Translations under genes and position numbers: made by a program
Notes under the pieces: model-generated
The model's input: only the letters and a program-made list of their open reading frames with translations
What the model was told of the DNA's origin: nothing
Database searches by the model: none
Origin: Klebsormidium nitens
Lineage: Eukaryota; Plantae; Klebsormidiophyceae
Assembly (NCBI GenBank): GCA_000708835.1
Contig: DF237624.1
Location: 6,138-47,065, forward strand
Length of the DNA: 40,928 nucleotides
Reading direction: 5' to 3'
Shown here: piece by piece, positions 2,966 to 35,869 of the stretch
Numbering within the stretch: position 1 is the stretch's first letter
How the letters are laid out: each line of letters begins with the position of its first letter

Positions 2966-3491
2966 TCGTTGGCGACGGTGTTTAGCTTCATCAGATCGTT
3001 CGGCATCCTCCGCCCCGCTGCTACTTCGGCCACGAGCTCAGGGGTCGACGCGCCAGGGACACGCGTCAGGTGCTCCATGTCTACCTTGACGGCGCCCGTC
3101 TCGTACGAGATGTTGTCCTCGAACAGGTCCCCTAGGCAGTATGCCCTCTCGACACAGGGAACGTCCGAGTCCCCACCCTCAGTGTTTTGGCTGAAACACA
3201 GAGCATAGATCTTGCCGTTTGGGTTGAGGTGACAGGTTATATTCTGGCGGTTCTCGTGATCCGACCCGTGTAGCACGGCTCCGTCCGATCGCTGTAATTA
3301 TAGCGATCTGGGCCCTCCTCGTAAGCGCTAGGGTGCAAGCGCTCCCTGAGCAGCGCTAGCATGCGGGCCTTGACGAACTCCTCGTTCTTCGAGCTGCGCT
3401 CTGTGCCCCGTTCGGACATGACACGAGGGTTGCTGAACTTCTCGTGGAGCCTTTGGGGCACTTCGAATGGCAGCTTGACCTCGTCACGGGC
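2966..3491 (-). CDS. Exon encoding the primase-associated Cys/His (Zn-binding-like) segment, frameshifted
   Basis: EPCYTGR-x-HENRQNITC...YALCFS...C aligns with right-copy EPCYTRHTHSGGRDLLC...FAKCSS...CC only if one base is restored at ~3259. The exon is 526 nt, and 527 nt is needed to satisfy the flanking splice phases. Confidence 0.7.
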
Positions 3492-3789
3492 CTGCAGTAC
3501 AGCACGAAGGCAGCTGATTACAAGCGCATTCGTGCCAAAACTAAGTCGCCCTGTCAAAATGTGAGGAGGAAGCCGAGAAGAAGGTCAAGACAATTCGTCA
3601 ATCAGAGGAAGCCTTGCACTGTCGTGCTGCAAAAAACCGTGTGCATCAAAGGCAACGAATCCCCTAAGCTTCACAGCTGTTGAGAATCGAAAACGAGGAG
3701 TGCGCCTCAAGCAAGGTCCTTCATTCTGCAATTGTGAAGGCCGCGCTTCAAGAAAAGACTGCTCAGACTTGCCGCAAAATCCACAGTTT

Positions 3790-3864
3790 GTACCAAGAAC
3801 GCTGTATTTACTTTCTTGAGAATCTAATGGGCCTCTTCTAGTACATCCTGCGGGTATGGCCGGG
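3790..3864 (-). repeat. Solitary family-A cassette, inverted, in the intron between the AEP and Zn exons
   Basis: gtaccaagaac...ttctagtac followed by tatggccggg, the reverse complement of the array unit. Confidence 0.8.
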
Positions 3865-3997
3865 TAGCCCATCAAGCGCAAAATCCGCTTCGAAGCAGGA
3901 AGGGCCGTATAAATTCTGAAGAAGTAACAGGCCTGAGAGAAGAACCCTGAGAGATGACCGACCTAGCGAGTGGCGAGTGTGGATCTTGGGCGCTCAC

Positions 3998-4874
3998 CTC
4001 GGGGGGCTCCAGCCAAGTCACCAGAGCGTCCTTCCAGGAATGGGCCGGATCGATGTACGACAGGACGCTCTCCGGCTTCTCGACCTTGGCGCTCCCCGGC
4101 GTCCGCCACTCGCGGTCCTTTGTGTACACGTTCAGGTCGATGAGAGCCGCGACCGCAGGATCAAACTGAAGCGCCCTCTTCTTGAGGCGCCTCGCAAAGT
4201 GGAGAGCCCCCTCAGTGTTGGAGCCGAAGACAAGTTGACGGGGAGACAGCTGGTTGATCGTGAGGTGGAGACTGAACTTGGTCTGGCCCGGGCTCTCGAT
4301 CCAGACGAAGCTGCTCGGATGCAGCTCACAGTCGTACTGTTCCTTGAAGACGACACCGGCCCACTTCTCAATGATCCGAATCACTTCCTCCGCCCCGTAC
4401 CTCTCCCCATCCTCAACCACCTCCCCGTCCGCTCCGACCACCGGTTGGCGCCTAAAAGGGAGTCCGTCCGTGCCGTCCAGATCGAGGTAGGGTTTGCAGG
4501 GCTTTCCGTTCTGGATGATCTCGGTCACCGACCCGTGCCGCCCCTCTAGATGCGACCGCGCTGTCTCCCAATCGGGGTACGAACCGAAGCTGCGCCACGG
4601 AACCCTCACCCCGTCTACGACCGCGCCGGACCACTTGTGCAGGACCACCTGCGCCTCGTGGTTCAAGAGCGCCGCCTCCTGCTGCATGAAGAACTTTGGG
4701 CCGGGGAGGCGGCCCCTTGGGTTGGCCCCTCTCTGATGGAAGCAGTTGGTGCCGTGCTCCCGCACACGCAGCACCCGGAACCCGTCCTTCTTGAAGACCT
4801 CGTTGCCAGTCAGCGGGTCAGAGTGCACCGCAGGCTCAGGCACCGCCGCAAGGTCCTCGCGCGCCACTGGAGGT
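3998..4874 (-). CDS. Archaeo-eukaryotic primase (PrimPol/NCLDV-herpes primase-like) domain, left copy
   Basis: Motif I PCKPYLDLD, motif II KFSLHLTI, motif III LIDLNVYTKDREWRTPGSAK. GC-rich exon with clean splice sites. Confidence 0.85.
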
Positions 4875-5285
4875 CTGCATAAGCGATGTAGGAACATTCA
4901 AAACGCTGCAACACTGGCTTGCCTTCGACCGTGCTCATGAATGAGTAAAACGTCAAATTTCCTGTGCAAGTGACACTTGTTGAGATAAGTTTATGTTAGT
5001 GGACGGGTTTGTGGTGCGCCAAAAAGCCTCGCTGACCATGCCTCTCCAATTACAGAGAATGATTGAGGAAGCAGATTCTGAAGCACCGCAGCACTCAACG
5101 AGCCGGCCGACCTTCTAGCAATGCACGCGGATACATGTCGGCAAAGAGAGGATGACAGACTTATTCCTCGGACATGTTGGATGGCAGATACTGGCTGATG
5201 TACACTTTGCACCATCCGAGTGATACAGATTTTCGACAGGGTATGGACGGCCCCAGCTTCCGACCATCCAGCGCACCATGGGGAT

Positions 5286-5368
5286 GTACCAAGAAACGCT
5301 GAATTACTTTAAAAGATTCTAACGGGTCCTTTCTTGGTACACCTTCAAGTTGCAGAGTATGGCCGGCC
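5286..5368 (-). repeat. Solitary family-A cassette, inverted, in the intron before the AEP exon
   Basis: gtaccaagaaa...tttcttggtac (perfect 11-bp inverted repeat) followed by tatggccggccc. Confidence 0.85.
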
Positions 5369-5490
5369 CAACTTTTAAGCATCCAGCGCACCCTGCAGAC
5401 ATCGGGCAGCCCAAGATAAGTGCAAGTAAACTGCAAACCCCACTGAACCTACAAAGTTTAGAACAATCTTGGCAAAGGGTAGCTACTTAC

Positions 5491-5774
5491 ACAGAGGTCG
5501 CTGGCGCTTCATCCGGGGCTCGCCTCCTCTGCATCTCCCTCCGCATGGGCGCTAGCGCTAGCGCCTCATCCAAGGTCTCGTCCCCCTCGAGCCGAGCTGC
5601 CGCTTCCTCCATCTCCATCTGCCGGTACAGATCCCGCATTTCAGCGTCCGGCACCGCCGAGTCGTCGATGCCCCGGTCATCCTCGGATGTGGGCTCTTCG
5701 TCGGACTCGGTCTCGTCTGATGTCTCTTCGATGTCGAAAGAGGCACCCTCTTGATCAGACGTCGCGGCAGCTTC
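5491..5774 (-). CDS. Acidic low-complexity exon upstream of the primase exon
   Basis: GC-rich D/E-rich frame (EETSDETESDEEPTSEDD) with a ttgcag acceptor. Its phase-2 gtaagt donor matches the phase-2 acceptor of the AEP exon. Confidence 0.6.
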
Positions 5775-6111
5775 CTGCAAGGAACGCCAACGGATCAATT
5801 CATGGACGCTGCTCAATTGCGGTCGGCAAAAGCTGGCAATAGGGATCTGCTCGCAGAGAATGGTGAGCCCAAGGCAAAACATGCCTGGCGCCGGGTTCGG
5901 CCTGATCATGCCTCACTGCCTCTCCTCAAACGCGCACGCAGCATCCCGGTCCGTATCCTAGTACCGCTAGGCGCCGGAGAGCTCTCCCTGCTCGGGGCCG
6001 TCCTCTTCCGACGCCCGACCTCCTGCATCCAAGCATCAGGACACTCCCGTTTCAGTGCAGGGCTCTCCTGAACTTAGGGAAACACCTCGGCGCTCAAAGG
6101 TCATCATAATC

Positions 6112-6651
6112 ATGGGCTGTGAAACCGAGTTCACGGGCAGCTTCGCTCTTTCACGCCCTCTGACCGCCGAGGAGAGCGCAATTTTGAAGGCTGTGCACGA
6201 CTACCGCCCTCAGGATGGCTTGAAGCTACCCTCTGCGGCTCCGGGTCAAGAGCGCCCGGTCAAGATCGTGCGGAAGGGAGTCAACCCCTACTACGGTGGG
6301 GAGGGATGGCACATCTTCAAAGAATTTCCCTCCTTCGACTGCCGTTGGACCGTCTCACGCGACAGGCGCGCACTTGTCTGGGACGAGAAGGGTCCCTTCT
6401 ACAACTACGTCAGCTGGCTCGAGTACCTCATCTCCCATTTCTTTGCGGTCTGGGGAGTACAGCTGAGCGGGACCGTCACGTTGAGGGGTAACTGTTTGGG
6501 CGACACGGGGTCAATCGCGGTGAAAGGCTACCAGATCTTCGTCAAGATGACCCCAATCGTGGCAGTGCGTATCGCTGAGGAATCATACGACTACCCGAAC
6601 GAGGCATTTTTCGACTACACAAAGGGGGAGAGACTTTTATACTCACCGTAG
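6112..6651 (+). CDS. Intronless hypothetical protein of a phage/bacterial-type family, tandem copy 1
   Basis: MGCETEFTGSFALSRPLT...PSFDCRW...LVWDEKGPFYNYVSWLEYLISHFFAVWGVQLSGTV. It closely resembles the adjacent paralog. Family assignment is from recall and is unverified. Confidence 0.7.
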   Translation: MGCETEFTGSFALSRPLTAEESAILKAVHDYRPQDGLKLPSAAPGQERPVKIVRKGVNPYYGGEGWHIFKEFPSFDCRWTVSRDRRALVWDEKGPFYNYVSWLEYLISHFFAVWGVQLSGTVTLRGNCLGDTGSIAVKGYQIFVKMTPIVAVRIAEESYDYPNEAFFDYTKGERLLYSP

Positions 6652-6836
6652 GCGCAACCTCAGTAGCAACGGAGCGAGGCTGGCTGTCAGAATGCGGGTC
6701 GCTGCTGGAAGGGCCCGTCTCCTGCGAGACAACGAGGGGATGAAGGGTTCAGGGACAAAGGGTCCCGCGGACGATCCGATTTCGACCATGGACACAGGCT
6801 TAGGGAAACGCTTTGGCCCTCTTAGGGCATCGAATC

Positions 6837-7301
6837 ATGGGCTACGACACAAAGTTCACCGGCCGCTTTGCCTTTTCCCGCCCCTTGACTGCCGAAGAGA
6901 GTGCGACCTTGGCAGCAGTGCACGAACACTGTCACGAGGACGACCTAGAGCTACCTTATGTAGCTCTTGAGATTCGCCCAGTCAAGATCGAGCGAGAGGT
7001 GATCAAGCCCTTGTATGTGGGCGAGGGCTTCGACTACTTAACAGAAAAGTTCCCCTCTTTCTACTGCCAATGGACGCTGTCACCCAACAGGCGAGCTCTT
7101 GTCTGGGACAAAGGGGAAAAATTCTACGATTACGTGAGCTGGCTCGAATACCTCATCTCTCACTTTTTCGCCGTATGGGGAGTGCAGCTGAGCGGGACTG
7201 TCAAGTGGAAGGGAGTCAGTCGGGGCGACAGGGGTTCGATCAAGGTCGAGGGTGATAAGATTCTTGTCAAGATGCCTCTAGCCAAGAAGGACTCACCGTA
7301 G
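6837..7301 (+). CDS. Intronless hypothetical protein of a phage/bacterial-type family, tandem copy 2
   Basis: MGYDTKFTGRFAFSRPLT...PSFYCQW...LVWDKGEKFYDYVSWLEYLISHFFAVWGVQLSGTVKWKG. Upstream (ttagggaaac) and downstream (ctcaccgtag...) flanks are shared with copy 1. Confidence 0.75.
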   Translation: MGYDTKFTGRFAFSRPLTAEESATLAAVHEHCHEDDLELPYVALEIRPVKIEREVIKPLYVGEGFDYLTEKFPSFYCQWTLSPNRRALVWDKGEKFYDYVSWLEYLISHFFAVWGVQLSGTVKWKGVSRGDRGSIKVEGDKILVKMPLAKKDSP

Positions 7302-7439
7302 GTGTCCGCTCTGTAGCAGCGGGACGGGGATTGCTGGTAGGATGCGGGCCGCTGAAGGAGGGGCCTGTGACCTGCAGGACAAATGAAGGCAAGGGGCTTA
7401 GGGGCAGATCGAGTAGAGTAGAGAAGGCAACTTCAAACG

Positions 7440-7839
7440 ATGGAATGGTACAACGATGACGGTGCGGTCCGTTTGACTGAGCAGATCAAGAGTGCCTTTG
7501 CTCTTGGCGCCATCACGGACCCAGACACTCTAAGGGCAGCATCGATCTTTCACGATGTAGCCGCATGTGCAATCACACGCCTCTGCAGGAAAGAGCACGT
7601 GCATCGACTTGAGGGAAATATCCTGGCCGTGGCTATTTCGATGGTTCATGCAAGCGGGGGGTTTCGTGGCCTGGTCGATCGACGATGTTAGTGAATTCTT
7701 CGACGAGTTTCTGAACAGTGAAGTGGGCAGATTCGAGGAGTTCAAAGGCCAGCTTTCCAAGCGCATATGCCGCGTGGCGATTGAGGAATGTAAGATACTC
7801 GCCTCCCGGGCGACGCCTGGCGCAGTGAACGGCTCTTGA
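7440..7839 (+). pseudogene. Possible ~130-aa orphan ORF split by a 1-bp insertion in a G6 run
   Basis: ORF 7440-7691 joins the frame of ORF 7567-7839 (SGGFVAWSIDDVSEFFDEFL) if one G is removed near 7655-7660. No recognisable domain. Confidence 0.3.
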
Positions 7840-8312
7840 CCCTGCGGGTGACCCGCTTGCACTGCCGAGAGCGCCATCGCCTCTGCCACCCAGTTCGGAT
7901 TCGATTGCTGAGTGAAGAAAGGAGTGCGCAAAGAATCAGGTTGCGATCAATCGACTCCTCACATATGCCAGCTCTCAATACGGATGGGTGCAGATGAATG
8001 GGCGTGCTCAATGACAGCATCTCACACATGTGGGACCACGACAGCGACTGGAACTCACGCTTGCTTGCCACGTAGCAAATGGCTCGGTGCTGACTGGCTT
8101 TGACCTGACGCTTTCCTGAACCTCCTGCATGACATGGATTGCCAAATTATTCGTCATACTTGAATCACCCGGTCTATATCGACACTTTGCGGATGCCCGT
8201 GAGAAGGGGCATGGTGATTTTGGGGAGTGGCACTTGTAGCCTGGCGGTACTTTGTGTCATCCTGGGATGGAGGCATGAGGCAGAAAGCAATTTTTGCCTG
8301 CAAATAACTCAC

Positions 8313-8425
8313 CTCCGCGGTCGGAAGCTGAATCAGGGGCCGCCCGCGTGAGCTGCTCGGGGCGTTGGGGTCGTGTGTGGGCCACCCCGGGTTGCTTTCG
8401 ATGCCCCCGATCATCAGTTGTGTCA
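8313..8425 (-). other. Exon with a degenerate 2A-like sequence (V)TQLMIGGIESNPGWP
   Basis: Direct translation. It has the same splice phases (1 to 0) and a similar preceding exon end (SKSRALI vs SKSLI) as the NPGP exon at 22510-22565. Confidence 0.7.
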
Positions 8426-8799
8426 CTGCATCGCACCAAAGGGATCCCTCAATCAATCGTGCTCAGAATGGCATGCCCTGAAGAAGCCAGACTCGCGCAT
8501 TCAAAGTTTGATCGTGCCCAGAATGGCAAGCCTTCAAGTCGGACCCGTGCATTTGCTGTCTTATCAGCAAAGCCACTTGAAGCCTCTGCTTGCCAATGAA
8601 TGCTAGAGATCTGCCACCATACCTATTAGTGCCCTGCTCTTTGATGCCGAAGAGTAGTAGACCTTGTCCGACCCGCACTCGTACGCTGGAAATCCTGCGC
8701 GAGCAGAACGTTGGCAGGTAAGATTCAAGAGACATGCCACAATTTCAGCGGTTCTTACAAAGACAAGGCTCGCGGCGCTGCAGAGGCGCACACTGTTTT

Positions 8800-10450
8800 G
8801 AAGGGCCCGGCCATGCCCTGCAAGATGTACCAGAAAAGGCCCATTAGATTCTTTATAAAGTAATATAGCTTTTCGTGGTACACATGGGTTGTGCGCCGGA
8901 TGGTCGGACCATGCGCTTGATGGGCCACTGGCCAGCCCGGCCATGCCCTGCAGGATGTACCAGGAAAACGCCCGTTAGATTCTAAAGAAAGTAATAAAGT
9001 ATTTTTTGGTACACCCTCATTGTGCATCGGATGGTCGTACCCTGCGCTGATTAGCCAGCCCGGCCATGCCCTGCAGGATGTACCAGGAAAACGCCCATTA
9101 GATTCTAAAGAAAGTAATACAGCATTTCGTGGTACACCCTCACTGTGCGCCCGGATGGTCGNNNNNNNNNNNNNNNNNNNNNNNNNNNNNNNNNNNNNNN
9201 NNNNNNNNNNNNNNNNNNNNNNNNNNNNNNNNNNNNNNNNNNNNNNNNNNNNNNNNNNNNNNNNNNNNNNNNNNNNNNNNNNNNNNNNNNNNNNNNNNNN
9301 NNNNNNNNNNNNNNNNNNNNNNNNNNNNNNNNNNNNNNNNNNNNNNNNNNNNNNNNNNNNNNNNNNNNNNNNNNNNNNNNNNNNNNNNNNNNNNNNNNNN
9401 NNNNNNNNNNNNNNNNNNNNNNNNNNNNNNNNNNNNNNNNNNNNNNNNNNNNNNNNNNNNNNNNNNNNNNNNNNNNNNNNNNNNNNNNNNNNNNNNNNNN
9501 NNNNNNNNNNNNNNNNNNNNNNNNNNNNNNNNNNNNNNNNNNNNNNNNNNNNNNNNNNNNNNNNNNNNNNNNNNNNNNNNNNNNNNNNNNNNNNNNNNNN
9601 NNNNNNNNNNNNNNNNNNNNNNNNNNNNNNNNNNNNNNNNNNNNNNNNNNNNNNNNNNNNNNNNNNNNNNNNNNNNNNNNNNNNNNNNNNNNNNNNNNNN
9701 NNNNNNNNNNNNNNNNNNNNNNNNNNNNNNNNNNNNNNNNNNNNNNNNNNNNNNNNNNNNNNNNNNNNNNNNNNNNNNNNNNNNNNNNNNNNNNNNNNNN
9801 NNNNNNNNNNNNNNNNNNNNNNNNNNNNNNNNNNNNNNTTGTGCGCCGGATGGTCGGACCTTGCGCTTGATGGGCCAGGCCGGCCATACCCTGCAAGATG
9901 TACCAGGAAAAACGCCCATTAGATTCTTCAGAAAGTAATACAGCGTTTCTTGGTACGCCTGGATTGTGCGCCGGATGGTCGGACCCTGCGCTTGATGGGC
10001 CAACCCGGCCATACCCCGCAGGATGTACCAAGAAACGCCCTGTAGATTCTTAGAAAGCAATACAGCACTTCTTGGTACTCGAGTGCTCCCAAGCTGCTCC
10101 GCGCGCTGAACAACCACACACTGTTTAAGGGGCCAGCAGGGTTAACCAAGAAACGCCCTATAGATTCTTAAAGAGTAATACAGTATTTCATGGTACACGA
10201 GCCCTCCCAGGCTGCTCCGCACGCACACCCCGACACACAGTTCAAGGGGCCGGCCATACCCTGCAAAATGCACTTGGCCATACCCCACCAAAAGTTTGAG
10301 GGGCCCCTGCCAGCAGCCATACCTTGCAAAAACGTATCGAGAAACGCCCATTTGATTCTTAGGAAGTAATACAGCCTTTCTTGGTACACACCCCCGCACT
10401 CTGCAAGGCATCGCACCGTTCTGAGGGGCCCGACCAGACGTACCAAGATG
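8800..10450 (+). repeat. Tandem array of family-A inverted-repeat cassettes (~123-130 bp period), interrupted by an assembly gap
   Basis: Each unit has a CCGGCCATRCCC leader plus a ~55-bp core GTACCARGAAA...TTTCYTGGTAC. Cores at 8827-8881, 8957-9012, 9080-9135, 9900-9956, 10025-10078, ~10142-10196 and ~10334-10387. Confidence 0.9.
9162..9838. other. Assembly gap inside the family-A tandem array
   Basis: Run of N flanked on both sides by repeat units. Confidence 0.99.
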
Positions 10451-10899
10451 TACCAGAGAGGGCCAGGAATCTGATGTTTGAGGTGGGAGATGCAGGCATC
10501 TGTCACGAGGGGGCGCGCATGAGTCTAGGTAGTCGAAAGGGCGGGTTTGCCGCTCACCTTGGAACGCGCTCCTCACCAGCACGCTCCTAGTGGCAGTGGG
10601 CTGTGCCGCAAACGTGGCGCTCCTGCGTGACAGCGCGCACAGACCCTCTGCGCGGTGGACGGGAGGCTGCCCGGGCTGCGCCTCGTCACTGGCGGCGTGC
10701 TGATGGCAGGCTGCGCCAAGACTGCAGTCCGACTCAGAGTGGTCCCCAGTCGCACAGCGGGGGCCAGTGGTTGGGTCCAGGCTGTCGTTGACGTCGCAGT
10801 CAGCGCGCGCAACCCCTACAAGCGCTCGATGGGTCAGAAATGTTGGTCACGTGCAATCGACCGGGCGCCAAGTACCCTGCTCGAGACACTGCCGGCAGC

Positions 10900-12950
10900 C
10901 CGGCCATAACCCCCATGACGTACCAGGGTTCAAATTCTTAAGAGAAACACGCCACCTCCTGGTGACATGCTGATGGCGCGCTGGCCCGACCACACCCTCA
11001 AGGATGTACCGGGAAAGAGCCTTCAGATTCTCAGAATAAAAAGCAACTTCCTGGTTCGTGCTGCTGGCGCGCCCCGATTCGTGCTCGCAAGTAACAAAGG
11101 TCGGCTCCCATGCTTCGCGCCGTCACTGAACCAAGGCCAGGGAAATGCAGTGCAGCACAAGGGACTGCAAAACGCTCACCTTGCGATCTGCTGAGCACCG
11201 GACGACGGCTGCTCGTGGCAGGAAGCCGCCCCGGCCGGAGGTTGTTTGACGGCGCGCAAAGGCCCTCACGTGCGGGGCGCTGCGCGTACTGCGCCTCGTC
11301 GTTGCTCGAGCTGGCGGCGGCGCGCTCGTGCTGTGAGGGGTCCAGAGTAGGATGAGTCGCGGCAGCGGCGGAAGGCTCGTCTGCATGGCGCGTGCCGTGA
11401 ACGCCGGTGCCTTGAGATCCTGCGCACGATGTCTCGTGAATCTCACATGATCCGCCCCAAAGATCAAGAGCATGCAAGCTGTCCGCCCGTGACCGGCAAA
11501 GACGCCACTATGTGGTACATGCTCATGGGGCTGCGGGCCCGGCCACAACCCCCAGAATGTATCAGAGAGCTGCCTAGTAGTCTCTGAAGAAAGATTGAGA
11601 TGATCTTTGGTACACTTCATGAAAGCTGCAAGCCCAGCCATACCCCCAAGAATGCGCCCGGCCATACCCCGCAAAATGCACCCGGCCATAACCTACAAGA
11701 TGTACCAAGAAAGGCCCAATAGATTCTTAGAGAATAATACAGCTTTTCTTGGTACACAACCCTTCTCTGCCCCGCATGCGCCACACCGCACAAGGGGCTA
11801 GCCATACCCCGCAAGATAAGTGAACCAGGAAACGTGCCAATAGATCCTTAAAGAAGAAAACAGCATTTTCCTGGTACACTCCCTTTTGTCGAAAGTCGCA
11901 CACCGGCCATACCCTGCAGAATGCACCCAGCCGCACCCCCCAGAATGTACCAGAAAACGCCCAGAAGATTCTTAACAAACAATACAGCGTTTCTTGGTAT
12001 ACGATCGTGATGAGAAGCAGGGTTGGTGTACCGAACAACGCTCTTCCTTGGTACACTGCTTTTGGGGGCGCCGCATCAAACCTCTTCAGATGAACCAAGA
12101 ACCAACCTTCTGTGTTCAACATCACACCTCCAGGAGTTATTGGATGTCGCGCAATCACTTTCGATCTGCCAGCCAGGGTGCAAGCTGATGGGCGCTTGCC
12201 TCAGTGATTTCTCATGTGACAATCTCGGGCGCTCACCTGCTGCTGCGATCCATGACTGAGGAACAGCAGATGACCCAGCTCCCTTCTGCAGCTGCTCGCG
12301 TTTAGGACAGGCATGGTTTGCCTTCCTTCGCGCCTTCTCGCGCCCCTGAACCCATGCTGCAAAAAGAAGAGGGTAGGGTCAGCGCGTGCGCTGGTGGGCC
12401 TGCAGCCGTGCAAAGACCTGCACGATTCAAGGTCGGGATGCGGGATGCTCAGACACGATCGAGATGTGTGTGTGTCTCGGAACCCTTACCTGCACGGTCG
12501 CTGTCGATCTTGAAACATCCCTTTGATGGCCCGTGGCTATCGCAGAAGTATGCGACCGCCCCTCCCATCTTGCCCCCGCGGAGCCCATACTCCGCGGCCG
12601 TCTCGCACTCGCGGCAGTAAATGGCATGCGGGTCTAAAAAGAAGAGAAGAAGAAGACTTAGGGAATCATGCAGGCACAGGACCGATTCCAACCCACCCCC
12701 CTGCGTACAGGACCGGCCATACCACCAAGTTTCGGCGCTGTACCAAGAAACGACCCATTGATATCTAAAGAAAGAATTGGCCAGAACATGGTACACCTCT
12801 CAACACAAGCCCGGCCTGCCTTCAGACTCTGGCGCCATTGTTACGTTTTAGGGCACGCCAAGCCATGCCACTCAGTTTTGGCGTTGTACCAAGAAATGAC
12901 CCATTGATATCTTTAAGAAACAGTTGGTCAAATCTTGGTACACCTCTTAA
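10900..12950 (+). repeat. Further dispersed and degenerate family-A cassettes in introns
   Basis: Copies near 10920, 11005, 11570, 11702-11755 (perfect 11-bp inverted repeat), 11822, 11946, 12028 (short), 12740 and 12885. Confidence 0.85.
12490..12633 (-). CDS. EsV-1-7-like Cys/His-rich finger exon, left module
   Basis: CRECETAAEYGLRGGKMGGAVAYFCDSHGPSKGC fits a CxxC...A.YG...Y.C..H pattern. The 144-nt exon equals the paralogous exon 21698-21841 in length and phase. Confidence 0.6.
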
Positions 12951-13886
12951 CCCAAGCCCAGCCATGCCACGAAGAATTTCCAGAAGGTTCTGCTGATCGA
13001 TTGTGATGAACGATGATCAATCCGCCGTTGTAAAGAATACCCTTCCTGAAACAATTGTATGTTCGATAGGCTGATGTCCTGCTCTTCATCAAAGAGTGAA
13101 ACACAATGATCCTTAATCCTCCTGCTTGCGAGCCAGCAACCGAGAATTCGCTGACCTTAAGAGCTGGCTTTCGAAGAACCAAACAAACGGTCTTTTGCTC
13201 ACCGCGTCCTGCATCCCAATCCAAAGCTTCTTTGAGCACCCGCGCACTGTGACGCTTTGCTTTCTGATCAGCAGCGCTGAAGCGCCGACCTCTTGGAATT
13301 CTGCGAGCAGGCTGCCCTTCATACTCTACCCCTTTTAAGCTCTTGCACCGCCGCCGGCGAGGGACAGGAATGTCATTGCTTCGCGAATCGACAGCAACGA
13401 TTAGAAACTCCTGCCTTTCTGCACTAATTGTGATGCGCTCCCTGTACTCTGCGGCGCGCGCAAAGCGTGCAGCCTGGCAGACCCTGTGATCAGACTTGAC
13501 CCTGCCACAAGGCCGGCTTGTCGCCATTTTCTAACAAGCACTAGCTCCGCTGGTCACATTTGCAACCACACGAAAGAGAGGTCTGAATTGCCCACAGCGA
13601 CTGAGGCACAATTTAACTCAGAGCAGACCCACAGCTTCAGAACAGAGCACAATACTGAAGTGTCAGAGCAAGGCACATTGTTTGCCCCCAAACGCTCAAG
13701 CAACTCCAGAGACATGGTAATGATGGATTCTAACTCCCAAGTAGGAAAGGCTGCCAGCGCAATCACTTACTCCAGGCCTGAAACGACTTGACCACTTGGC
13801 GCTTGCAGCTCCGCCCGGCAGTTGCTATTAGTATTTTACTCAGCTTTGCATGAGGCAAGTTGCAGCACATTGGCAGCTGGAGACTA

Positions 13887-20806: not shown

Positions 20807-23800
20807 ATGGCTAGAGGCCGGCCTCATGGCCGGTCCAAGTCCGATCACAGAGTCTGTCAGGAGGCTCGTTATGCACGAGCCGCTGAGTACAGGGAGAGAA
20901 TCGCCATCAGTGCTGAGCAGCAGGAGGCACGCATTGCTGCTGTGAATGCTAAGTGCAACATGGAGGATGCCCCTTGTAGGCAGCGGGGGCAGAAGTCGAG
21001 GGCGTCGAAGACCAAGGCAGAGGCGGCTCGGATGTTCACAGGGAGCCGTGCTTGCAAAGAGTCTGGCAGTGCAAGGAAGAAAGCAAAGAAGGGCCTCGAA
21101 CATTCGCTTGGCAAAGCTGCAGAAAGAGGTGAGTTCTGGTGCATGGCTTCTCTGATTGGTTTACCTTGTGAAGCCGAGGCAGAGCAGAAGCTTGAATGCT
21201 CTGTGCTGCAAGATAGAAAGGTGACTGGTGGGCTGGTGCAACATGTACGAAGAAGAGCATCTCGGTGTAGATGGCGAGAGAAATGAAGCTGGTACACTAC
21301 TTTGGGTAGTGCGGTCAGAATGGTGAAGGATGGCTGGCTCTGCAGTTAAGAACAGGGTTCTGAGGGGTTTTAGCGTGCATGGCCGTTTTTAGAATGTAAC
21401 AGACTTTGCCTCTTCCTCTTTGGAAAATGAGAGGCTAATTCTTGGTACAGGCTGTCTATCACAAAGTTGTAAGCAGTCTTAGCGGGCATGGCCGCCCCTG
21501 GGGTGTACCAAGCTTTGCCTCTTTCTCTAAGGGATATAAGAAGCTCATTCTTGGTACACGCTGGCACTTACACAAACCTCCAAACCTTCCACTGCCGAAG
21601 AAAGACTGCAAAAGGCTGGGGCATGCACCAAGTCTTGCATGCTTTTCACATCTACACTCCAGGTTCATCACCAAACCCCTGCGCTTCTTCATTGCAGACT
21701 TGCACAGTCTTCACTGCCAAGCGTGCGGCGCAACTGCAGAGTATGGGCTGAGGGGAAGCAAGGAGGGGGGCAGCGTCAAGTACACGTGCAGAGCGCACAC
21801 CACATTGAATGGTTGTTTTCGAGTCGACCGAGACCGCGCAGGTGCGAGCATTCGGGGAGCCTGCTCTTGACATGGTCTGCATGCAATGCAACGCTCATAG
21901 CTGCTCTCCCATTGGTTAGCAGTGGGCTTTTAGAAAAGACTGCCAAGAGATCTACAGCTCTGTATGCTTTGCAGGTTGGGCAGAGGACCAAGAGATGCGG
22001 CGCCTGAGAGCACAGGAGAGGAGATTGGAAGAGGAGCTGCGGCAACTCGGAGGGGCCTCGTTCACTGCAAAATCGACATCAGGTGGGCGTGTGGCGCGAT
22101 CTTTCCTCTCAATGGTGCTCTTGTTTTAACTGCATGGGGCAGTGAGTTCCCTTGCATGCCCTTGCCTCGTCATTGATTTCCTTGCTGTGTAGTGATATGT
22201 GATGCTTTTGTGATGGCTAATGAGTCCCTCCACTGTTCTTCTGCAGCTTGGAGTGAGTCGCAAAGTACGGGGGATGGGGCTTCAGTGCCCATGAGCAAGT
22301 CGCTCATAGGTAAGGCGCTTTGGTTGCGGTTCTGAAGCTGCAATCACTTGTACGGCTGTTGGGCTTGCTCTGTGTTTCAAGCGCTTGTAGCACTTGGACT
22401 AATCCTACTAGACGGTTCTAAAGACTTGCATGGTGGTCTTCGCTCGTGCCCTGATGAATCGAGCTGCTTCCAGCATTTAGCAATTTAACCTGTTGTTTTT
22501 CATGTGCAGCCACACTTCTCATGATTGGTGGTATTGAAGTTAACCCTGGACCTACTGCATACGAGGTGAGCCTGGAAAAGGTATTCTGCAGTTCAAGGAG
22601 GGACTGGTAAGCACTAGTTATACTCGAATAGCAGGAAGCTTCTTCTTGCTCAAAGTCCATGCCACTGAGAGAGCAGGCAATAGATGTTGTACCAATCATC
22701 AATGTCTCTTGACCACAGATTGCACAAAACAAAGAGAGCTGGCTAGGAGCTTATCCGGACATTGACAGAACGCTGCTGGATTACCTGGCACTGAAGAACA
22801 TCAGGTTGGCCAAGTGGAGAGAGTCCACATCCGAGCAGCGCTCCAGTCTTCTAGACCTGTGGGCACGCCGGTACACTGGGGAATGGTTAGGGGACTGGGA
22901 CATGTTCCTCATAGGGGTTCCGGGTAAGCAGCTCCCTCTTCTGAATCAGTAGGCTACCTTCGATGCAATCCGCTTGAGATCAGGACTAGAGGTTTCCATG
23001 AATTCAGAAACGAGGATTTGAGCTTTCCGGTGTTGCTGGTCAGCATGTAGCGGCGGGGAAGCTTGGAGAAGATGGCATGACATGGGCCTTCTGCTGATTG
23101 GCAGTGTTGACAGGTGACACAGTCGCTTCTTTGTCGATCTTGCCGAGGACACTGTTGCATGCTGGGCATGGAGTGTTTCCTAGCAAAAGCGGAGTTGCTC
23201 TGGAGCAGAAAGTGGCCTGCTGTGCAATTGTTGGCAGACCAGGTGCAACTCATGAGCAGTAGGGTGCTTGTCAGCCACCCCCCTCGTGCAATCTGCCAAA
23301 GGCTGGTTCTTCACTTGGCTTGCTGTCTTCGAAGCTCATCCACACGAGACCCGGATCTGCTTATCCTTCTGCTACAGCAGTTGCAAAGAGGGGTCAGGAT
23401 GTAGGAGCGGGCCCATCTGCCGATGTGGAGATGAAGGATGTCAATCCAGGGAACCAAGTTGGTAAGAGCCACTGTTCGGTCTGTATGGTGCAAGGCCTCT
23501 TTTACAAATTGCTTCTGGCAGCTTGTGCTTGCCTCAGTGTGCTGACAATCTCATGTAGTCACTCGAAAGGAGAACGCATTGCTTCTGTATGCAGTACATA
23601 GAGCGCCCCAGCGCAAGGCAACTCCTGACTGCCAGTTTGTGCTTGCAGGCAGGAGTTATGACACGTTTGTTGCCGCACTTGGCGCAAACAGCGAGGGGAT
23701 CAACAAAAGAAGAGCAAAGGGGGGCATCTTCACCCCTCGAATAGAGACAGTCCACAAGATCTTGTCGCGCTTGCAAGAAACGCTGGTGTTGCTTCTGGCA

Positions 23801-27932: not shown

Positions 27933-30900
27933 ATGGCTTCTGACCTGCGATCCCACTGGGAAAAGTAAGCCGCTGTTCATGAGCTGAGTACGGCCTCAGT
28001 ATGCAAAGCCAGAAGGGTCTTCTTGATAAAATTTGATTGAGACTGGGACTGATCATGATGGAGTTGCACTGGAAGGGCTTTCCATATTTGATGTGCTTCG
28101 AATCATTCGAAGAAGACCTGTCCATGTTCTGTCGCTTCTTTATATGTGTCTCTGATGCAAAACCTGGACATGGCTGTCGTGGAGGTTTAGAGCAAGAGGT
28201 TTAGACGGTGCTGCTGAGATCACTGAGCCCTGTCCCCCAAAACCCAAAGGTTGACCTGCATCTCATTTGTTTTTCTCCAGTGATCCTTCCTCCTCTGAGG
28301 AATCGGAAGGAGAGGATATTGAAGGTGTCGAGTATGCGCCCCGCTCTGTTGGCGGCTCCCAGTCTGGACGCTCGCTGGAGGAGTTCCTTCAAGACGAAGA
28401 CTCTGCCAGCATCCAAGGCCCGTCCTTCTACAGGGCGTTCAGCAATGGGACAAGCCTCAGCCCAACTCAGCTGCCAAGGGGCGTCTCAACTTTGCTCAGC
28501 AAGGTAGAATTTGCTTCGGTGATTTTATCTGCTTCTGCTTCTGATTTTGCCGTGGTTCCGAAACAGCTTCTGTGATTGTACAACGACACCTTAGTTGACT
28601 GCCATCTAAATCTGTCGAGTGAAGCACCGTTGAGTAGGCTTGGGTCTGCTGCTTGAAATGCATAGGTTGCTCACCGGCATGTATGCCTTACAGGGTTACG
28701 TGCCCACCTCTCCATTTGCTTGGACTTCTGGTAGCGCCTTCGGAAAGCGGATATGCATAACCCCGCCAAGCAACTTCCAGGTGAGTTAAGAGGCTGATTC
28801 AAACTTGCGCAACTTGTGATTCAAACTTCGTGATACTGCACACGTTGATTGCAGTCGTTCTCCAATCGTTGCACCTGAGAAGATCCCATCAGCGTGGATC
28901 ATTTCTTATTCCAGGCTAGTAGTTGCTTAACAGGACGGGCCTTAGATGCTGCCTACAGTGACCTTTCCAGTATGCTGACAACCGCCTCAACACTAGATGA
29001 CGGTCTGTTGCACTTTGTAAAGGCTCTTGAGTCTGCTTCTAACTTCTTCCATCCTTTGGTCCACTTCTCCCTCATTTACTCACTGCCTTCTCCTCATGTA
29101 GGCGCCATCATCTCGTTGCATCCTGCAAAACGTTGGTGGCAAGAGGCTCGCAAGTGAAGCTTCAGCTGGCAAATGCAGTCCGAGTCCAACATCGAGAAGG
29201 AGAGGCCTCGCAAAGAAGCGTCGGCGCGTCATCCTCTCGCAAGACTCAGAAGAAGAGCGGCCGATGGCCCCCCTGCCTCTTGTAGAGGTGAGTCGTGCTT
29301 GCATACAAGTTTCGTCCAGGTTTTGCATGTATGAGATGCGAATTTTCAAACGACAAAACGTGGATATCAGCTGGAGTCCCTTTTCTGCAGCCAGCTCTGC
29401 TCGTATTCTGTGTTTTCTTGATGCAGAAGCTGGACAGGCTTTTAGAACTCAAATGTCGAGGCACGTCCCTAAGCTTGGAAACAAAAGAAGTGACGGTCCA
29501 GGTTCTGTCGTTTCTTTATACGTGTCTCTGATGCAAAACCTGGACGGCAAAAATCTTGAGGCCCCAGATCCTTCACTCTTGGAAGTTACGAAGTCGAGGC
29601 ACGGGCCTAAGCTTGGAAACAAAAGAAGTGACGGTCCAGGTTCTGTCGTTTCTTTGTACGTGTCTCTGATGCAAAACCTGGACAGCACAAAACTTCGAGG
29701 CCCTAAAGCAGTCGAATACCTTCGCTACGATGCAGAAAGCGAGCAGTGCCAACTGCTTAGCAATCAGATACCTTCAACGCCTTCCATCTCTTGACCTCGA
29801 TCAAGTTCTTTGAACCGGGTTGCAAAGCCAGCAATTCTGACGCACACTATATCGTCCTTCTGCAGGTAGAAATTGGTCAATCGGTTGATAGGGTGCCCGC
29901 AACTGATCGCAGCCAAGAGCATGGTTTTGGACAAGAGCAAGCTCAGGTACAGCGCCTGGCCATAAGGTCTGTTTAAGGTTAGCTGAAGGCAAGTTGGTAC
30001 AAGCTCGCAGCAGACTCGATTGCAGAGACGCACGTGTGAGCAGTCAAGTCAGGGACGAGAAACTCCGATTCAGACCTTCAAAGCATTACAGCACCTCGCA
30101 GCCGTTTGTGCAAGCTGATTCATACATTAAAAGAGCCGCTCACAGCTGAACGGCTTCCTCATGAGTGTCGTTTCAAATGCTTGCTTAAGTGAGCCGTTCC
30201 CTCCGTCAGCTTCCGAAGTGTTGTCTCCTTTTGGCAGCGTTGTTGCAATACTTCTGCTCGATTCACCTTGCAAAGACTAGAGGCTGCAAAGAATCAATCA
30301 TGTGATGCCCGTCTAGCAGAAGTAGCGTAAATTCCCAGCCCCTGTTGCAGATCCCTGGTCGTGTAGTCGTGCACACTGAGCACGATGGTGCGGTTCAGAC
30401 GGTGCAAGAAAACAAGCTGGGAACGGCCTTCTTCTTCAAGTTCAGTCGAGCAAAGCTCCACTACCAAGATCCGAAGAATGGGCCGCAGGGTTTCAGCAAG
30501 CGGCACGCTGCTCTCTGTGATCACACGGTGGAGTTGCATCTTCTCGACCATAAGGGCTATCGTAGCTACGGGTCATACCCAAACTGGCCGACCGCGCGGG
30601 ACTACACTCTGCAGCAGCCTTTCCTCGAGGAGGTGCTCGTCGAAGGGAGACCCTGCAAGCCGTTCCTAGATATGGAAAGCGATCAGGGGTTGCCTAAGGG
30701 GGAAACTCTTCGGAGCGTTATCAGCCAGTTTCAAGACGCCATCACGAAGATCTTTGCGGAGGACTACGCAGTCGAGATCCAAGAGCGGGATTTGAATCGG
30801 GTCCACTGCGACTATGGACCCGGCGGCAAGTTCAGCGTCCATCTCGTCATCTCAACGCACGGGCCGCGGCAATTGGTCTTCCGCTCCAATCTCGCCCCTA

Positions 30901-33900
30901 ACGTTGACCCGCAAGGAGCAGGACACCTCGCCCGCAGGCTTGCTAAGGTTCTCCCCCCGTCCCTGGCTGACCTCATCGATCAGAGCGTCTACACTCGGAA
31001 TCGAGGCATCCGGATGCCTGGTTGTGCAAAGCCCTCCAGACCTGACTGCCCGCTGCGTCCTCTGGACCACACCAAGCCATATGCTGACAGCGTCATCACC
31101 TGGTTCGACAAGGTAGGTAGCCTCATGTTGACGACAGCTTGTTTGCTGAAGAGACCATTCGCTGACCGGGCAAGGTAGAGGCAAGTTGCTGTCCGACCTT
31201 TTGCACAAACCTAGACAGACATTGTGCCAAGTCACTGCCTAGTCTCGTGTTGTCCTGTGTGCTTCTCACAACGGAACTTCAAAATGTGTAGCAACGTGGC
31301 AAGTTTTAGCCTGACCCTTCTCTACCTTCGATTCAAACTCAAGCTTACACTTCAACCTTCAATATGAGCACGTTTCGAAGTATCATTAGGCAACTTGACC
31401 TGGCCTCTCGTAAGAACAAGGATCGCCTGTCTAGGTTTCGTCAATTATATATATGCTTCTCTGATGCAAAACATAGACAGCATATATTTCAAAAATTCAA
31501 TGTCCTCAGCATCTATGTTTCGTCAAATAGAACAGCAGCCTTGCTTAATGGTATGAGGTCGATTCAAGAAGATGCTCGAACTTATGGTTATAATCCAAGT
31601 TTACAAGTGCGCATCATCTCTGACCTAGGTTGCGGCACCCCAGATGTAGGAAATGCCCCACTGCTGGCTGACGTCATCGATCTGCTTCGTTGTTTTGACC
31701 AGGAGTTTGACTTTATCAAGGTCCCTGTCCTCGTGCCTGATGCTATGCGACAACACCGGCGCCCCACAAAGCCCGCGGAGATGGCTGTTCTCAGCGTCAC
31801 CAATCTGGACGCCTACACGGTCCAACGCTGCCTAGAGCTCTTGCAAGCACGCTTGCATCCAACGGCCTTCAAGCGAGGAGCGAGTAGGGCGCTCAACTTC
31901 AGCTGGACGGACCGGGAAGGAGAGCCGTGCTACACCAGGCACACTCACTCCGGCGGGCGCGATCTTTTGTGCATCGTGAACGAGGCTCAGAACGCTGTCT
32001 TTGCCAAGTGCTCTAGTGAGCGGGTCGACTCCACGACCGGAGTGTGCTGCAAGGAGCAGCCTGCCCACTATCTCNNNNNNNNNNNNNNNNNNNNNNNNNN
32101 NNNNNNNNNNNNNNNNNNNNNNNNNNNNNNNNNNNNNNNNNNNNNNNNNNNNNNNNNNNNNNNNNNNNNNNNNNNNNNNNNNNNNNNNNNNNNNNNNNNN
32201 NNNNNNNNNNNNNNNNNNNNNNNNNNNNNNNNNNNNNNNNNNNNNNNNNNNNNNNNNNNNNNNNNNNNNNNNNNNNNNNNNNNNNNNNNNNNNNNNNNNN
32301 NNNNNNNNNNNNNNNNNNNNNNNNNNNNNNNNNNNNNNNNNNNNNNNNNNNNNNNNNNNNNNNNNNNNNNNNNNNNNNNNNNNNNNNNNNNNNNNNNNNN
32401 NNNNNNNNNNNNNNNNNNNNNNNNNNNNNNNNNNNNNNNNNNNNNNNNNNNNNNNNNNNNNNNNNNNNNNNNNNNNNNNNNNNNNNNNNNNNNNNNNNNN
32501 NNNNNNNNNNNNNNNNNNNNNNNNNNNNNNNNNNNNNNNNNNNNNNNNNNNNNNNNNNNNNNNNNNNNNNNNNNNNNNNNNNNNNNNNNNNNNNNNNNNN
32601 NNNNNNNNNNNNNNNNNNNNNNNNNNNNNNNNNNNNNNNNNNNNNNNNNNNNNNNNNNNNNNNNNNNNNNNNNNNNNNNNNNNNNNNNNNNNNNNNNNNN
32701 NNNNNNNNNNNNNNNNNNNNNNNNNNNNNNNNNNNNNNNNNNNNNNNNNNNNNNNNNNNNATCGTGAACGAGGCTCAGAACGCTGTCTTTGCCAAGTGCT
32801 CTAGTGAGCGGGTCGACTCCACGACCGGAGTGTGCTGCAAGGAGCAGCCTGCCCACTATCTCGGTCGCTTGTACGAGGACGTGGAGACTTGGAAGGCAAG
32901 CGCCATTGAGATCGACATGCGCTACCTCGAGCGAGACCCCCTTGCTGCTGGACCGATGGATCTGCAGCTGATCCGGATGGGCTCGAAGGGGATGACGGAC
33001 AAGATTCTTCTCAACAACGTGGTCAACAGTGATCCCGCAGGTGTCGATGGCTACAATTACAAAGTGGAAGAGCTGTCGCTACTTGCTTGTAGTCTCTTGT
33101 GATCCAGCAACTTGCACCAGCTCGTTAAATTTACCTCATGAACCGGATTCCAATCGTGATGACACCGTGTTTCTTCTGCTTTGTCTCAGACTTTGACCGC
33201 ACGTATGATGGGCTGATAGAGGGTAACTTAGCTTCAAAGTCAAGTGGTTTGCCTGCCCACCGTTGAAGTAGATTCTCCGCTTTTCAGGTGGCAAGCTGGC
33301 AAGTTCCAGGCGCTCCTCGTTCGAAGCCCGATGGGCACAGGCAAGTCCGAGCTGGTCAAGCGGATCAAGGTGGAGGAGCCCGCCCCCCAGAAGATTTTGC
33401 TGGTCACTTATCGGCAGACGCAGGCGGCTGATGCGCACGGCAAAAACCCCGAGTTTGCCCACTATGCGGAGCTCAAAGCCCTGCCATCCCAGCTGAATGA
33501 GCAAGGGGACTTCGTTGCTCCTTTATCTGACAGAGTGCGGTTTCCAAAGGTCGTAGTCCAGTTCGACAGCCTTAACCACCTCCTCGCTGAGAGCAGAGTG
33601 GTCGACTCATTCGATCTCGTAATTCTCGACGAGAGCGAGTCCATCCTGGCCCATCTTTCAGCTGATACATTCTCCAACCGACACCGGACCGTCAACTTCC
33701 TGATCGAGCTTTTGAGCCAAGCAAAGCGGATTATAGCGCTGGATGGGCATCTGGCTCAGCGGACGTTCGACTTTCTTACAATGAGTGGCATCCCGTGCGG
33801 GCCTGTCGTGATCAACAAACATCTACCAGAGCGTCCGCTCGAGTTCACGTTTCTGGAGAAGGACGAGGGGAAGGCTTACTGGGAAAGGTCCATCTGGACT

Positions 33901-35869
33901 GCTCTAGGGGAGGGCAAGAACTGCGTAGTATACAGCATGTCGTCAGAAGAAGTGTACAGGTTGAGGGACGCCGCGGAAGCCACAGGCTTGCTACAAGCTT
34001 CAGAGATACTCGCGATCACAAGGGCTTCTTCTGGGGACATCAAAGGGGGCATGAATAACGTGAACCTCTCTTGGAAACGCCGTTTGGTCATCCTCAGCCC
34101 CACGGTGGAGGCAGCGGTCGACTTTTCGGCGGAGTGGTTCCATCGCAGCTTCATCTACGTCTGCGCACACAGCACCACTCCGAGGGGCTTAGATCAGATG
34201 AAGAGCCGCGTTCGGAAGCTGAAGGAACCAGAAGTGTTGTGCTTCGTGCAAGCTGGCATCGCTTTGCCGACCAGGACCGGGCTGCGCGCTCAAGTTGCGT
34301 GCGATGAAGGTGAATCTATAGCCACTGCGTATTTGCTTGTTGTACCAACGGATCTCATTTGTTGCCAAGTACCGAAGTTTTGGAAAAGCATGACCGAGGA
34401 AAAGGGCCGAGCCTGGGCTTAGGGTACGTGAGATGTTTTTGTCGACTCCAGAGTGCTCACGGCGGGAAGTCACGGTCGTCCAGTTTTTGTCAATTATATA
34501 TATGCCTCTCTGATGCAAAACCTGGACAGCTGCACCAAGGAGGACAGCTGCAGCAAAACCTGGACAGCAGCTTTGCTTGTCTATATTTTGTCCATTGCGG
34601 AGGCACGAGCTCGCATTTATGGACATTTTCGAGAAACAGGTCGGGCCGGTAGTAAGCAGCACCTTCGATCTGAATCTATCAAACGTTTATTCTTGTACTC
34701 CGCGTGCAGACCCTGTGGGCTCGACTCCGCCTGTCTACCTGACTACCATGGGGCCCAAACAAGCAGCAAGTCGGCGGCTGGGGGTAGAGGAGTCCTATCA
34801 GTTCTTGCGTTGGATACACAAGAACGTGGACGCCCGTCAGGAGACGAGGCAACGAGGGGAAGGGGGACAGAGCATCTTCGCGCCGATAGAGGACGCTGTA
34901 ATGAGGGTGCTAGCACACAACGAAGCTGAAAGCAGCAACAAGAACTCGCACTTCTATGAAGTCTTCACTGAGTTGCTCGAGAGCGAGGGGCATATTGTGA
35001 AGGGGGTGCTCCAGTTGGACACCGCGCCAAAAGTCTTGGCTGGCCCGGAAGAGGACGAGGAGGGGCCTTGTCAAAGCTATCTAAAGCGGCGTCTGCTGGA
35101 GGCGCCAGACATCTCGCTCGAGGAGGCTAAGCACCTTCAGCTTCTGATTAACAAGAAGCAAGATCGGGAGGGGGACTTTGCGAAGGTGGAGCGGTTCAAC
35201 TATATGAGGTTTTACAAGATTCGACAGCTTGATGGACCCTTTCTAGACATCTTTGGGGGGCGGCATCTCGACTGCCTCACCTTCCTGCTTCAAGTGGTCG
35301 ATCCTGCATATCAATTCCCCGAGGACGAGATCGGCAGAGCGAAGTCCTTGCCTCTCATGGCAAAGCTTGCGAAAGAGGTCATTTGTGCACTGGGGCTCGA
35401 CAATCCGTTGGACTATGAGCGCGTGACAGAAAAACTTGAGGTTCTGAGGTCGAAACTGGCGGCAACGGAGTACTTCCAGGACTACGGAAGATGTGTTCGA
35501 CTGTTCAGCGGACGCACCATCCAACAGACGTGCGATCTAGGCGATCCAAAGGCAGTCTACCACGCCTTAAACCACATCTTCAACCGAATGGGCGTCCATG
35601 TGCGGCAGGTGCGGTTGGGCCAGCAGAAGAAGGCTGACGAGGCTACCAAGAAAAGGGAGTACCTGTATGGGGGATGGCAGATTGAGCCTGAGTGTTCAGG
35701 AAGAACCGTAGGCGCAAAGTACATGTTACAGTTGCTCATGTTGCAGGTGGAGGGGTCTTCATTGATGCTCGAAAATCTGGACTCAAGCCTAAGAAGGCTC
35801 ATAGAAAACGCGCCGTTCCAATACAGGCATCTTGTAGAAGCCCCATGCATGTTGGGGGCCGTAGTTTAG
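27933..35869 (+). CDS. Spliced AEP primase - Zn-binding segment - UL9/OBP-like SF2 helicase - C-terminal domain, right copy, apparently open
   Basis: Exons 27933-27964, 28281-28503, 29102-29287, 30351-31112, ~31721-33040 (across the gap), ~33272-34309 and 34710-35869. Motifs PCKPFLDME, KFSVHLVI, LIDQSVYTRNRGIRMPG, RSPMGTGKS, VTYRQTQA, LVILDESESILAHL, ILSPTVEAAVDF. The 33040/33272 junction and the start are uncertain. Confidence 0.8.
28120..34527. repeat. Family-B inverted-repeat cassettes (~50 bp, GTCCAGGTT...AACCTGGAC), 7 copies, all intronic in the right primase-helicase gene
   Basis: Copies at 28120-28169, 29314-29365 (inverted), 29390-29435, 29496-29545, 29634-29683, 31429-31478 and 34478-34527. 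Most share the inner CTCTGATGCAA. The copies at 29496 and 29634 lie in a 138-bp tandem duplication. Confidence 0.9.
32075..32760. other. Assembly gap whose flanks overlap by an identical 102 bp
   Basis: 31973-32074 is identical to 32761-32862. Collapsing the overlap keeps the reading frame. Confidence 0.95.

Follow-up and report, generated by a model that had tools for sequence, protein, structure and literature searches.

The closest described parallels to the locus reported here come from viruses and bacteria. In herpes simplex virus 1 (HSV-1), the origin-binding protein (OBP) UL9, a superfamily 2 (SF2) helicase, is paired with the origin oriS, in which two inverted boxes flank a spacer and an extra box stands alone (PMC12543377). 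Proteins joining an archaeo-eukaryotic primase (AEP) to an SF2 helicase are a known class in nucleocytoplasmic large DNA viruses (NCLDVs), represented by mimivirus R8, pF1055L of African swine fever virus (ASFV) and mriyavirus SF2_hel (bioRxiv 10.1101/2024.02.29.582850), and several distinct NCLDV inserts are reported from the alga Klebsormidium flaccidum (PMC5294986). CyRepA1 (Slr7037) is a cyanobacterial plasmid initiator, a primase plus helicase, with origin control by RNAs (PMC9978351), and in the systems of repetitive extragenic palindromes (REPs) and REP-associated tyrosine transposases (RAYTs) every enzyme variant is accompanied by a short-palindrome class of its own, and REP copy numbers run from tens to more than a thousand (PMC3686654). 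Here we analyze a 40,928-nucleotide stretch of Klebsormidium nitens DNA (contig DF237624.1, positions 6,138 to 47,065; hereafter the window). It contains two primase-helicase genes, called the left gene and the right gene, and the subject of this work is B, a family of short palindromic cassettes in the introns of the right gene; the cassettes of the left gene form a second family, A (Table 1).

The right gene resembles the HSV-1 pair in its homologous SF2 helicase, in a C-terminal domain whose top structural match is the HSV-1 OBP and in the layout of B, two inverted boxes around a spacer with one further lone box. It differs in its N-terminal AEP fusion, in box sequences unrelated to GTTCGCAC and in having several candidate sites dispersed through spliceosomal introns of the nuclear gene that encodes the initiator itself. 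With the NCLDV class it shares an identical domain order and a C-terminal fold that matches NCLDV origin-binding proteins, and a homolog at 29% identity lies in a viral contig (L006). In contrast, the Klebsormidium genes are intron-rich and spliced and have multiplied to 14 or more annotated paralogs, and the viral genes checked had no such cassettes nearby; we found no capsid, polymerase or other NCLDV hallmark among the 19 + 11 proteins scanned, which cover part of the open reading frames (ORFs). CyRepA1 is likewise a primase plus helicase, whereas the setting of the right gene is eukaryotic and chromosomal. RAYT transposases are HUH-type enzymes, whereas the enzyme here is a primase-helicase and the B copies stay within the introns of the gene; no RAYT gene was seen among the scanned ORFs. 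Plasmid iteron-Rep specificity groups are initiator-site pairs that diverge together, iterons being tandem direct repeats at one origin. An earlier note on this DNA had likened B to such groups. What carries over is the idea of co-diverging pairs; the comparison itself is not supported: B consists of inverted pairs scattered over 6.4 kb and four introns and is closer to oriS than to direct-repeat iterons. By the tests run, B and the right gene lie outside the CyRepA1, iteron and miniature inverted-repeat transposable element (MITE) families.

Results

Four Right-Gene Introns Hold Seven B Cassettes

The earlier note had counted seven copies of B in four introns, and profile searches together with shuffle tests bear this out: five copies are clear and 50 bp long, one is reversed and one is decayed. 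The profile was built from the five ungapped copies (28120, 29496, 29634, 31429 and 34478), each scoring at E 2e-15 or better, values that are those of seed sequences. The pattern GTCCAGGTT-N-AACCTGGAC quoted in the note is exact in two of the seven copies (29496 and 29634; 0 expected from 100 shuffles), and the other five deviate from it. Arms reach 12 bp in the six best copies, inverted and with 0-2 mismatches. Two of the clear copies are units of a 138-bp tandem duplication that spans 29455-29695; between copies of different introns no shared flank was found (4-12 matches out of 25). All 14 B half-sites scoring at least 12 fall inside the four introns (null mean of 1.8 per window). A possible decayed, armless relic at 33064, uncertain and picked post hoc, has an interior p of 0.0003, uncorrected.

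Six of the seven copies lie in the sense orientation, and their stems are predicted at -11 to -19 kcal/mol. Intronic hairpins of this kind could act at the RNA level, in the pre-mRNA, by affecting splicing or by being bound by the right-gene protein for feedback control. We hold this to be very improbable: the distance to the splice sites is not fixed, reversed copies occur in both families, no cassette has an Rfam match at E up to 5 across 27500-36000, and the arms, in which 16 of 94 cells are unpaired, show no significant covariation. Covariation had been claimed for B on the strength of two double changes. Both are present, but the same level was reached in 93 of 500 shuffles, and family A is likewise within chance (354 of 500).

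One Orthologous Intron Holds Different Cassettes in the Two Genes

A stronger argument than covariation comes from a single intron position. Intron 6 of the right gene and the left-gene intron at ~3994-3502 are both of phase 0 and lie four codons ahead of the same xKxP motif; the former holds B31429 and the latter A3790. The two cassettes are 45% identical, which is the background level (46 ± 5%). By contrast, A3790 shares 78-86% identity with four of the five further left-gene A copies compared and 64% with the remaining one, and B31429 shares 76-88% with the three further clear B copies compared. Descent from one ancestral intron would lead one to expect the reverse, so that, judging by these identities, the cassette is copied or replaced by some process acting inside each gene. 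The box is GTCCAGGTT in the right clade as against GTACCAAGAAA in the left clade. The kinship of A and B proposed in the note holds for the arm core, in which the two are alike, but not for the interiors, which match at chance; a homology of the interiors that had suggested itself by eye was rejected as not significant (single-copy p of 0.13 and 0.25). The right gene contains no full A copy by profile and exact-arm searches, as the note had stated.

Copying within a gene could also come about if B were a function-free local repeat, a hairpin-bounded 50-mer that template switching or ectopic gene conversion carries from one nearby intron to another and that each gene duplication passes on, so that type would follow clade without recognition by any protein. 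The entire 50-mer is conserved, beyond the arms alone, tandem duplications yield several of the copies (the 138-bp unit in intron 4 and a 123-bp array at 8805-9161), A accompanies a shared 5' exon module into the ATPase gene described below, and covariation is not significant, all of which favor this explanation. It leaves unexplained why palindromes of the same size occupy the same intron of two 38%-identical genes of origin-binding type, and why they are nearly absent from neighboring genes and intergenic DNA within 41 kb. We regard it as possible but somewhat unlikely.

The Right Gene Encodes a Primase-Helicase with a Predicted OBP-like C-terminal Domain

The helicase exon matches PF02399 at E 1.9e-14 (53 bits against a cut-off of 20), as a UL9-type SF2 helicase does, and in a sequence search HSV OBP was its top match (E 1e-17). 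The N-terminal region matches PrimPol at E 8.5e-8 and its AEP catalytic motifs are intact, which gives the AEP-SF2 combination of the NCLDV class. The CyRepA1 profile NF042913 also matches the helicase exon (E 3.7e-33), and with a relative its alignment extends from position 6 to 593 of 595 (E 2e-38), which is full-length for P0003, these matches reaching 115-150 bits; all seven proteins compared score 54-150 bits, under the 200-bit cut-off, and are therefore not counted as members of CyRepA1.

When the predicted structure of the C-terminal domain was compared with 48,161 chains by VIA-align, HSV-1 OBP 547-832, a range inside the limits of its DNA-binding domain (536-851; PMC12543377), ranked first with a Z of 6.3 (root mean square deviation of 6.3, 173 residues aligned), which is modest and below the VIA safe level of 8. 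It was the only chain with a Z of 5 or more, the runner-up reaching 4.2. Modest as the Z is, the structure points to the same protein as the sequence of the helicase does. Against BFVD, the fold matched NCLDV replication origin-binding proteins at E 2e-7, and a longer model gave 13 matches at E 0.001 or better; an Atlas search with the C-terminal exon returned no usable match. These models predict for the C-terminal domain a fold resembling that of the herpes origin-binding domain. The description of the product as an origin-binding protein, which the note had offered, thus finds backing in the predicted fold and in the plasmid-initiator relatives detected by profile.

Named K. nitens proteins make up 14 of the 27 relatives found with the helicase exon, the closest at 91% identity, and the annotated paralogs form three clades. 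In a tree of 29 helicase fragments, the left clade comprises six rows (support 100/100), the right gene pairs with P0009 (95/96), a third clade has 12 rows (100/98), and P0013 is an unplaced long branch. The last 150 residues diverge strongly between clades.

GT..AG joints of all four cassette introns were present in both of two likely-RNA runs and in neither of two DNA runs. The likely-RNA contig sets come from two studies and the two DNA runs from one sample; "likely-RNA" is a label assigned by us, no run being recorded as RNA, and the cassette introns' low contig depth in these runs says nothing about a small RNA. Among the 15 of 25 joints listed, those of at least seven right-gene introns occur in likely-RNA contigs and in neither DNA run. 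Joined exons 1-7 form an open frame of 547 codons. A run of N at 32075-32761 sits between exact copies of a 102-bp repeat and is skipped by the RNA contigs, so it is likely an assembly artefact. Just before the helicase exon, 33029-33288 has 11 bases beyond what the frame of P0009 needs, and the frame holds only with a putative 13-nt microexon (33190-33202); this copy of the right gene may therefore be damaged there. Upstream of the gene, the motifs TGAGTCA / TGACTCA recur in 27330-27600, where a TATA-like TATATAA is also present.

B Is Apparently Low in Copy Number and Is Not Strictly Private

The earlier note had placed B in the right gene alone, with none in the left locus. Strict privacy fails on two counts, namely a B-like remnant in a left-gene intron and an A-type cassette in an ATPase gene that lacks a helicase. 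The remnant shares 58-64% identity with the four clear copies and the reversed copy compared (background 46 ± 5%), and CAGGTT-N-AACCTG recurs in it at 2664-2704, one of three matches in the window against 0.02 expected. What stands of the claim that each protein variant has its own palindrome is that divergent paralogs differ even in an orthologous intron.

In one DNA run, the summed contig depth over 29300-29570 was ~400 on the cassette compared with 13-27 per contig, a rough guide that covers 80% identity or more and is not a true copy number; it suggests a genome-wide figure of ~20 close B copies rather than hundreds. Some three close loci span the right gene, and a right-type gene has four copies detectable by the depth query, so that 3-4 close paralogs with four detectable copies each explain most of the ~20. 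In paralog contigs, B is found at intron 1 (a piece that begins at 28156) as well as in the last intron (a joint from 28170 to 34690), and a loose end matches the flank of 34527 with a score of 38.5 against 27.5 for the next. In one further DNA contig the alignment stops exactly at 34478 and 34528, the ends of a cassette whose two flanks there resemble nothing in the window; an impression by eye that these flanks were intron 4 was rejected on comparison. The loose-end results rest on the 24 of 165 loose ends that were listed. Depth and paralog contigs together suggest that B is low in copy number and that the extra copies that could be placed lie in introns of close paralogs.

A contig with unrelated flanks, ends that are sharp at the arms and the occurrence of both orientations would suit a tiny non-autonomous mobile element, MITE- or REP-like, moved by another enzyme (for example, that of the recombinase-like gene at 39286-40358) and landing by preference in these repeat-rich loci. 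We think such an origin decidedly unlikely, given that none of the six copies tested has a target-site duplication of 2-10 bp, that the ~20 close copies are mostly accounted for by 3-4 paralogs and that B proper is confined to one gene in the window.

Looking for DNA related to the window, we retrieved either nothing or loci with distant proteins (22-36% identity; 5 metagenome loci and 25 viral loci), and no third-clade DNA. The B core has 0 exact matches in viral contigs and in prokaryote genomes. We treated 115 viral matches to the A-arm pattern as chance, and the 80 loci listed contain no match to the A or B profile.

The Left Gene, Family A, and the ATPase Gene

The helicase of the left gene is 38-39% identical to the clade partners of the right gene, and paralog models assign 5' exons up to 13527 to it. 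Among its A cassettes, those at 3790 and 5286 are reversed relative to the others. The cassettes at 5260-5366 and 8805-9161 are embedded in longer units with tandem periods of 24 bp and 123 bp, whose flanks CCGGCCATACC / GGATGGTCGG are weakly inverted themselves. Another left-gene intron has a 77-bp tandem pair (686-840), each unit with a 39-bp imperfect palindrome that is bounded by TCCAG and CTGGA or CTGAA and has an interior unrelated to A or B. Nested antisense in the left gene are two paralogous intronless ORFs (6108-6651 and 6833-7301, + strand; 71-74% DNA identity) with no Pfam match.

A sixteenth A-type cassette lies in a spliced ATPase gene (20807-26397, + strand), which we take to be a Crinkler-like NTPase plus nuclease from its motifs. 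From one end to the other, its exons correspond to the ATPase proteins P0033 and P0034; it shares with the left gene its first exon and a zinc-finger exon, and has no helicase exon. The upstream flank of the cassette is homologous to that of left-gene A copies, and A therefore also follows a 5' module common to different enzymes. P0033 and P0034 have the same modular build. The gene also shares with the left gene a GGIEVNPGP motif (~22527); motifs of the form G[GA][IV]ExNPG, presumably 2A-like, occur at 8408 (- strand) and 22527 (+ strand) and in P0004, P0014-P0017, P0033 and P0034, where they divide a variable N-terminal module from the enzyme, and none is present in the right gene. The idea, formed by eye, that the A cassette has its counterpart in a module annotated as coding in P0033, P0004 and P0002 (p of 0.0035, 0.10 and 0.97) was post hoc and is kept as a weak lead only.

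Other Features of the Window

The window is eukaryotic and intron-rich. A second NTPase gene (16431-18887, - strand) has weak NACHT/AAA matches and is divergent from the ATPase gene; the 19-bp motif AACCAAGTGATTGTTGGCA is present upstream of both this second gene (~20080) and the right gene (~27040). An intronless ORF at 39286-40358 (+ strand), split over two frames near 40130, shows by eye an R, K, HxxR, H, Y pattern and is presumably tyrosine-recombinase-like; five relatives at 70-79% have no assigned name. A 294-bp AT-rich MITE-like element (13885-14178) has 28-bp terminal inverted repeats that are 96% complementary, and an ORF at 36114-36650 (- strand), without a Pfam or NCBIfam match, looks KilA-N-like by eye. 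The labels Crinkler-like, 2A-like, tyrosine-recombinase-like and KilA-N-like are based on motifs, with no family match behind them.

Table 1. Coordinates of the genes, domains and cassettes, counted from the first nucleotide of the window
Feature	Position	Strand	Location and remarks
Left primase-helicase gene	208..13527	-	tblastn of P0015-P0018; C-terminal exons beyond window start
B-like remnant	2662..2706	-	Left-gene intron; 8-bp perfect arms; interior p 0.03
Span of 15 family-A cassettes	3790..12941	both	Left-gene introns; 13 by profile, 2 by exact arms
A-type cassette, sixteenth	21505..21557	+	ATPase gene; local score of 60 against at most 40 in shuffles
Right gene: AEP primase, UL9/CyRepA1-like SF2 helicase, predicted OBP-like C-terminal domain	27933..35869	+	Second primase-helicase gene; spliced
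AEP primase exon	30351..31112	+	FLDME, SVHL, DQSVY motifs intact
SF2 helicase exon	33289..34309	+	PF02399 match
C-terminal domain	35066..35845	+	Predicted fold matches HSV-1 OBP 547-832; pLDDT (predicted local distance difference test) 86
B cassette	28120..28169	+	Intron 1 (27965-28280); profile seed
B cassette, reversed, 52 bp	29314..29365	-	Intron 4 (29288-29865); E 7e-6
B cassette, decayed	29388..29435	+	Intron 4; nhmmer E 0.26; interior shuffle test 0/3000
B cassette	29496..29545	+	Intron 4; first unit of 138-bp tandem duplication
B cassette	29634..29683	+	Intron 4; second unit of 138-bp tandem duplication
B cassette	31429..31478	+	Intron 6 (31113-31702); position matches left-gene intron holding A at 3790
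Possible decayed armless B relic	33064..33117	+	Uncertain, post hoc; score 36.0, z ~4.2 among 7877 windows
B cassette	34478..34527	+	Last intron (34310-34709)
Lone B half-site (third box)	34554..34567	-	Last intron; score 24.3

Discussion

The analysis establishes the cassette itself, its intronic position, the splicing of its hosts, its uniformity within a gene, the difference between genes and the domain content of the protein. We infer that the B boxes are cognate binding sites of the gene's own OBP-like product, spread by local priming or conversion, and we give this model an even chance. B, two 12-bp boxes in inverted orientation within 50 bp, has been copied from intron to intron in one clade of a giant-virus-type primase-helicase gene, and the right-gene product would bind it through its predicted OBP-like C-terminal domain. 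Other introns of the gene would receive the cassette, in either orientation, by local synthesis or by ordinary gene conversion between bound sites, and protein and cassette would drift together, so that each clade would keep its own box; in helicase-less genes, for instance the ATPase gene at 20807, the box would be served in trans. The OBP-like fold, the helicase and CyRepA1 matches, the AEP motifs and the oriS-like layout argue for such cognate boxes, as do the contrast within the orthologous intron, the unrelated flanks, the lack of target-site duplications, the confinement of half-sites, the apparently low copy number and the presence of B at the same introns in paralog contigs.

Several results weigh against the cognate-box model. 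Significant covariation is absent in both families, and the B spacer, invariant at 22 of 32 positions in the five clear copies, is conserved as strongly as the arms, a conservation that recent copying alone explains; its AT content of 56-69%, compared with 50-55% in the host introns, is a modest enrichment. On the protein side, the Z to HSV-1 OBP is modest, Foldseek found no match in the PDB for either C-terminal model, and the RVKNL motif of alphaherpesvirus OBPs is absent from the last-exon translation. The B-like remnant inside the left gene, the A-type cassette in the helicase-less ATPase gene and the contig whose flanks match nothing in the window count against the model as well, and no element ends were found. 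Beyond the window, neither profile has a match in the 110 loci fetched, and of 10 loci from distant relatives, 9 lack a repeated arm family near the gene.

If the boxes are indeed cognate, the B-protein pair would work like UL9 and oriS or like another initiator and its origin. A broader picture, which we offer as speculation and think unlikely, is that of a family of nuclear replicons of viral descent, devoid of a capsid, in a streptophyte alga. The primase-helicase of each clade would bind palindromic origins in its own spliceosomal introns, re-replicate and duplicate the locus, rewrite its sites in cis and serve in trans the ATPase/nuclease cargo that carries the shared 5' module; the clade-specific initiator-origin pairs would be specificity groups.

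In searches of the open-access literature we found no description of the intron-rich expansion in Klebsormidium, nor of intronic palindromes. To our knowledge, no defined DNA target is known for the AEP-UL9-like primase-helicases of giant viruses, such as mimivirus R8 and ASFV pF1055L. In the right gene, a protein of predicted OBP-like fold goes together with an intronic candidate site, 50 bp long and shaped like oriS; the question of the target becomes directly testable because the different site of the sister clade is a built-in control for specificity. Were the sites to act as origins, they would mark a route from a viral replication gene to a self-amplifying nuclear element. Even without origin function, the homogenization of a short palindrome across non-homologous introns within one gene calls for an explanation.

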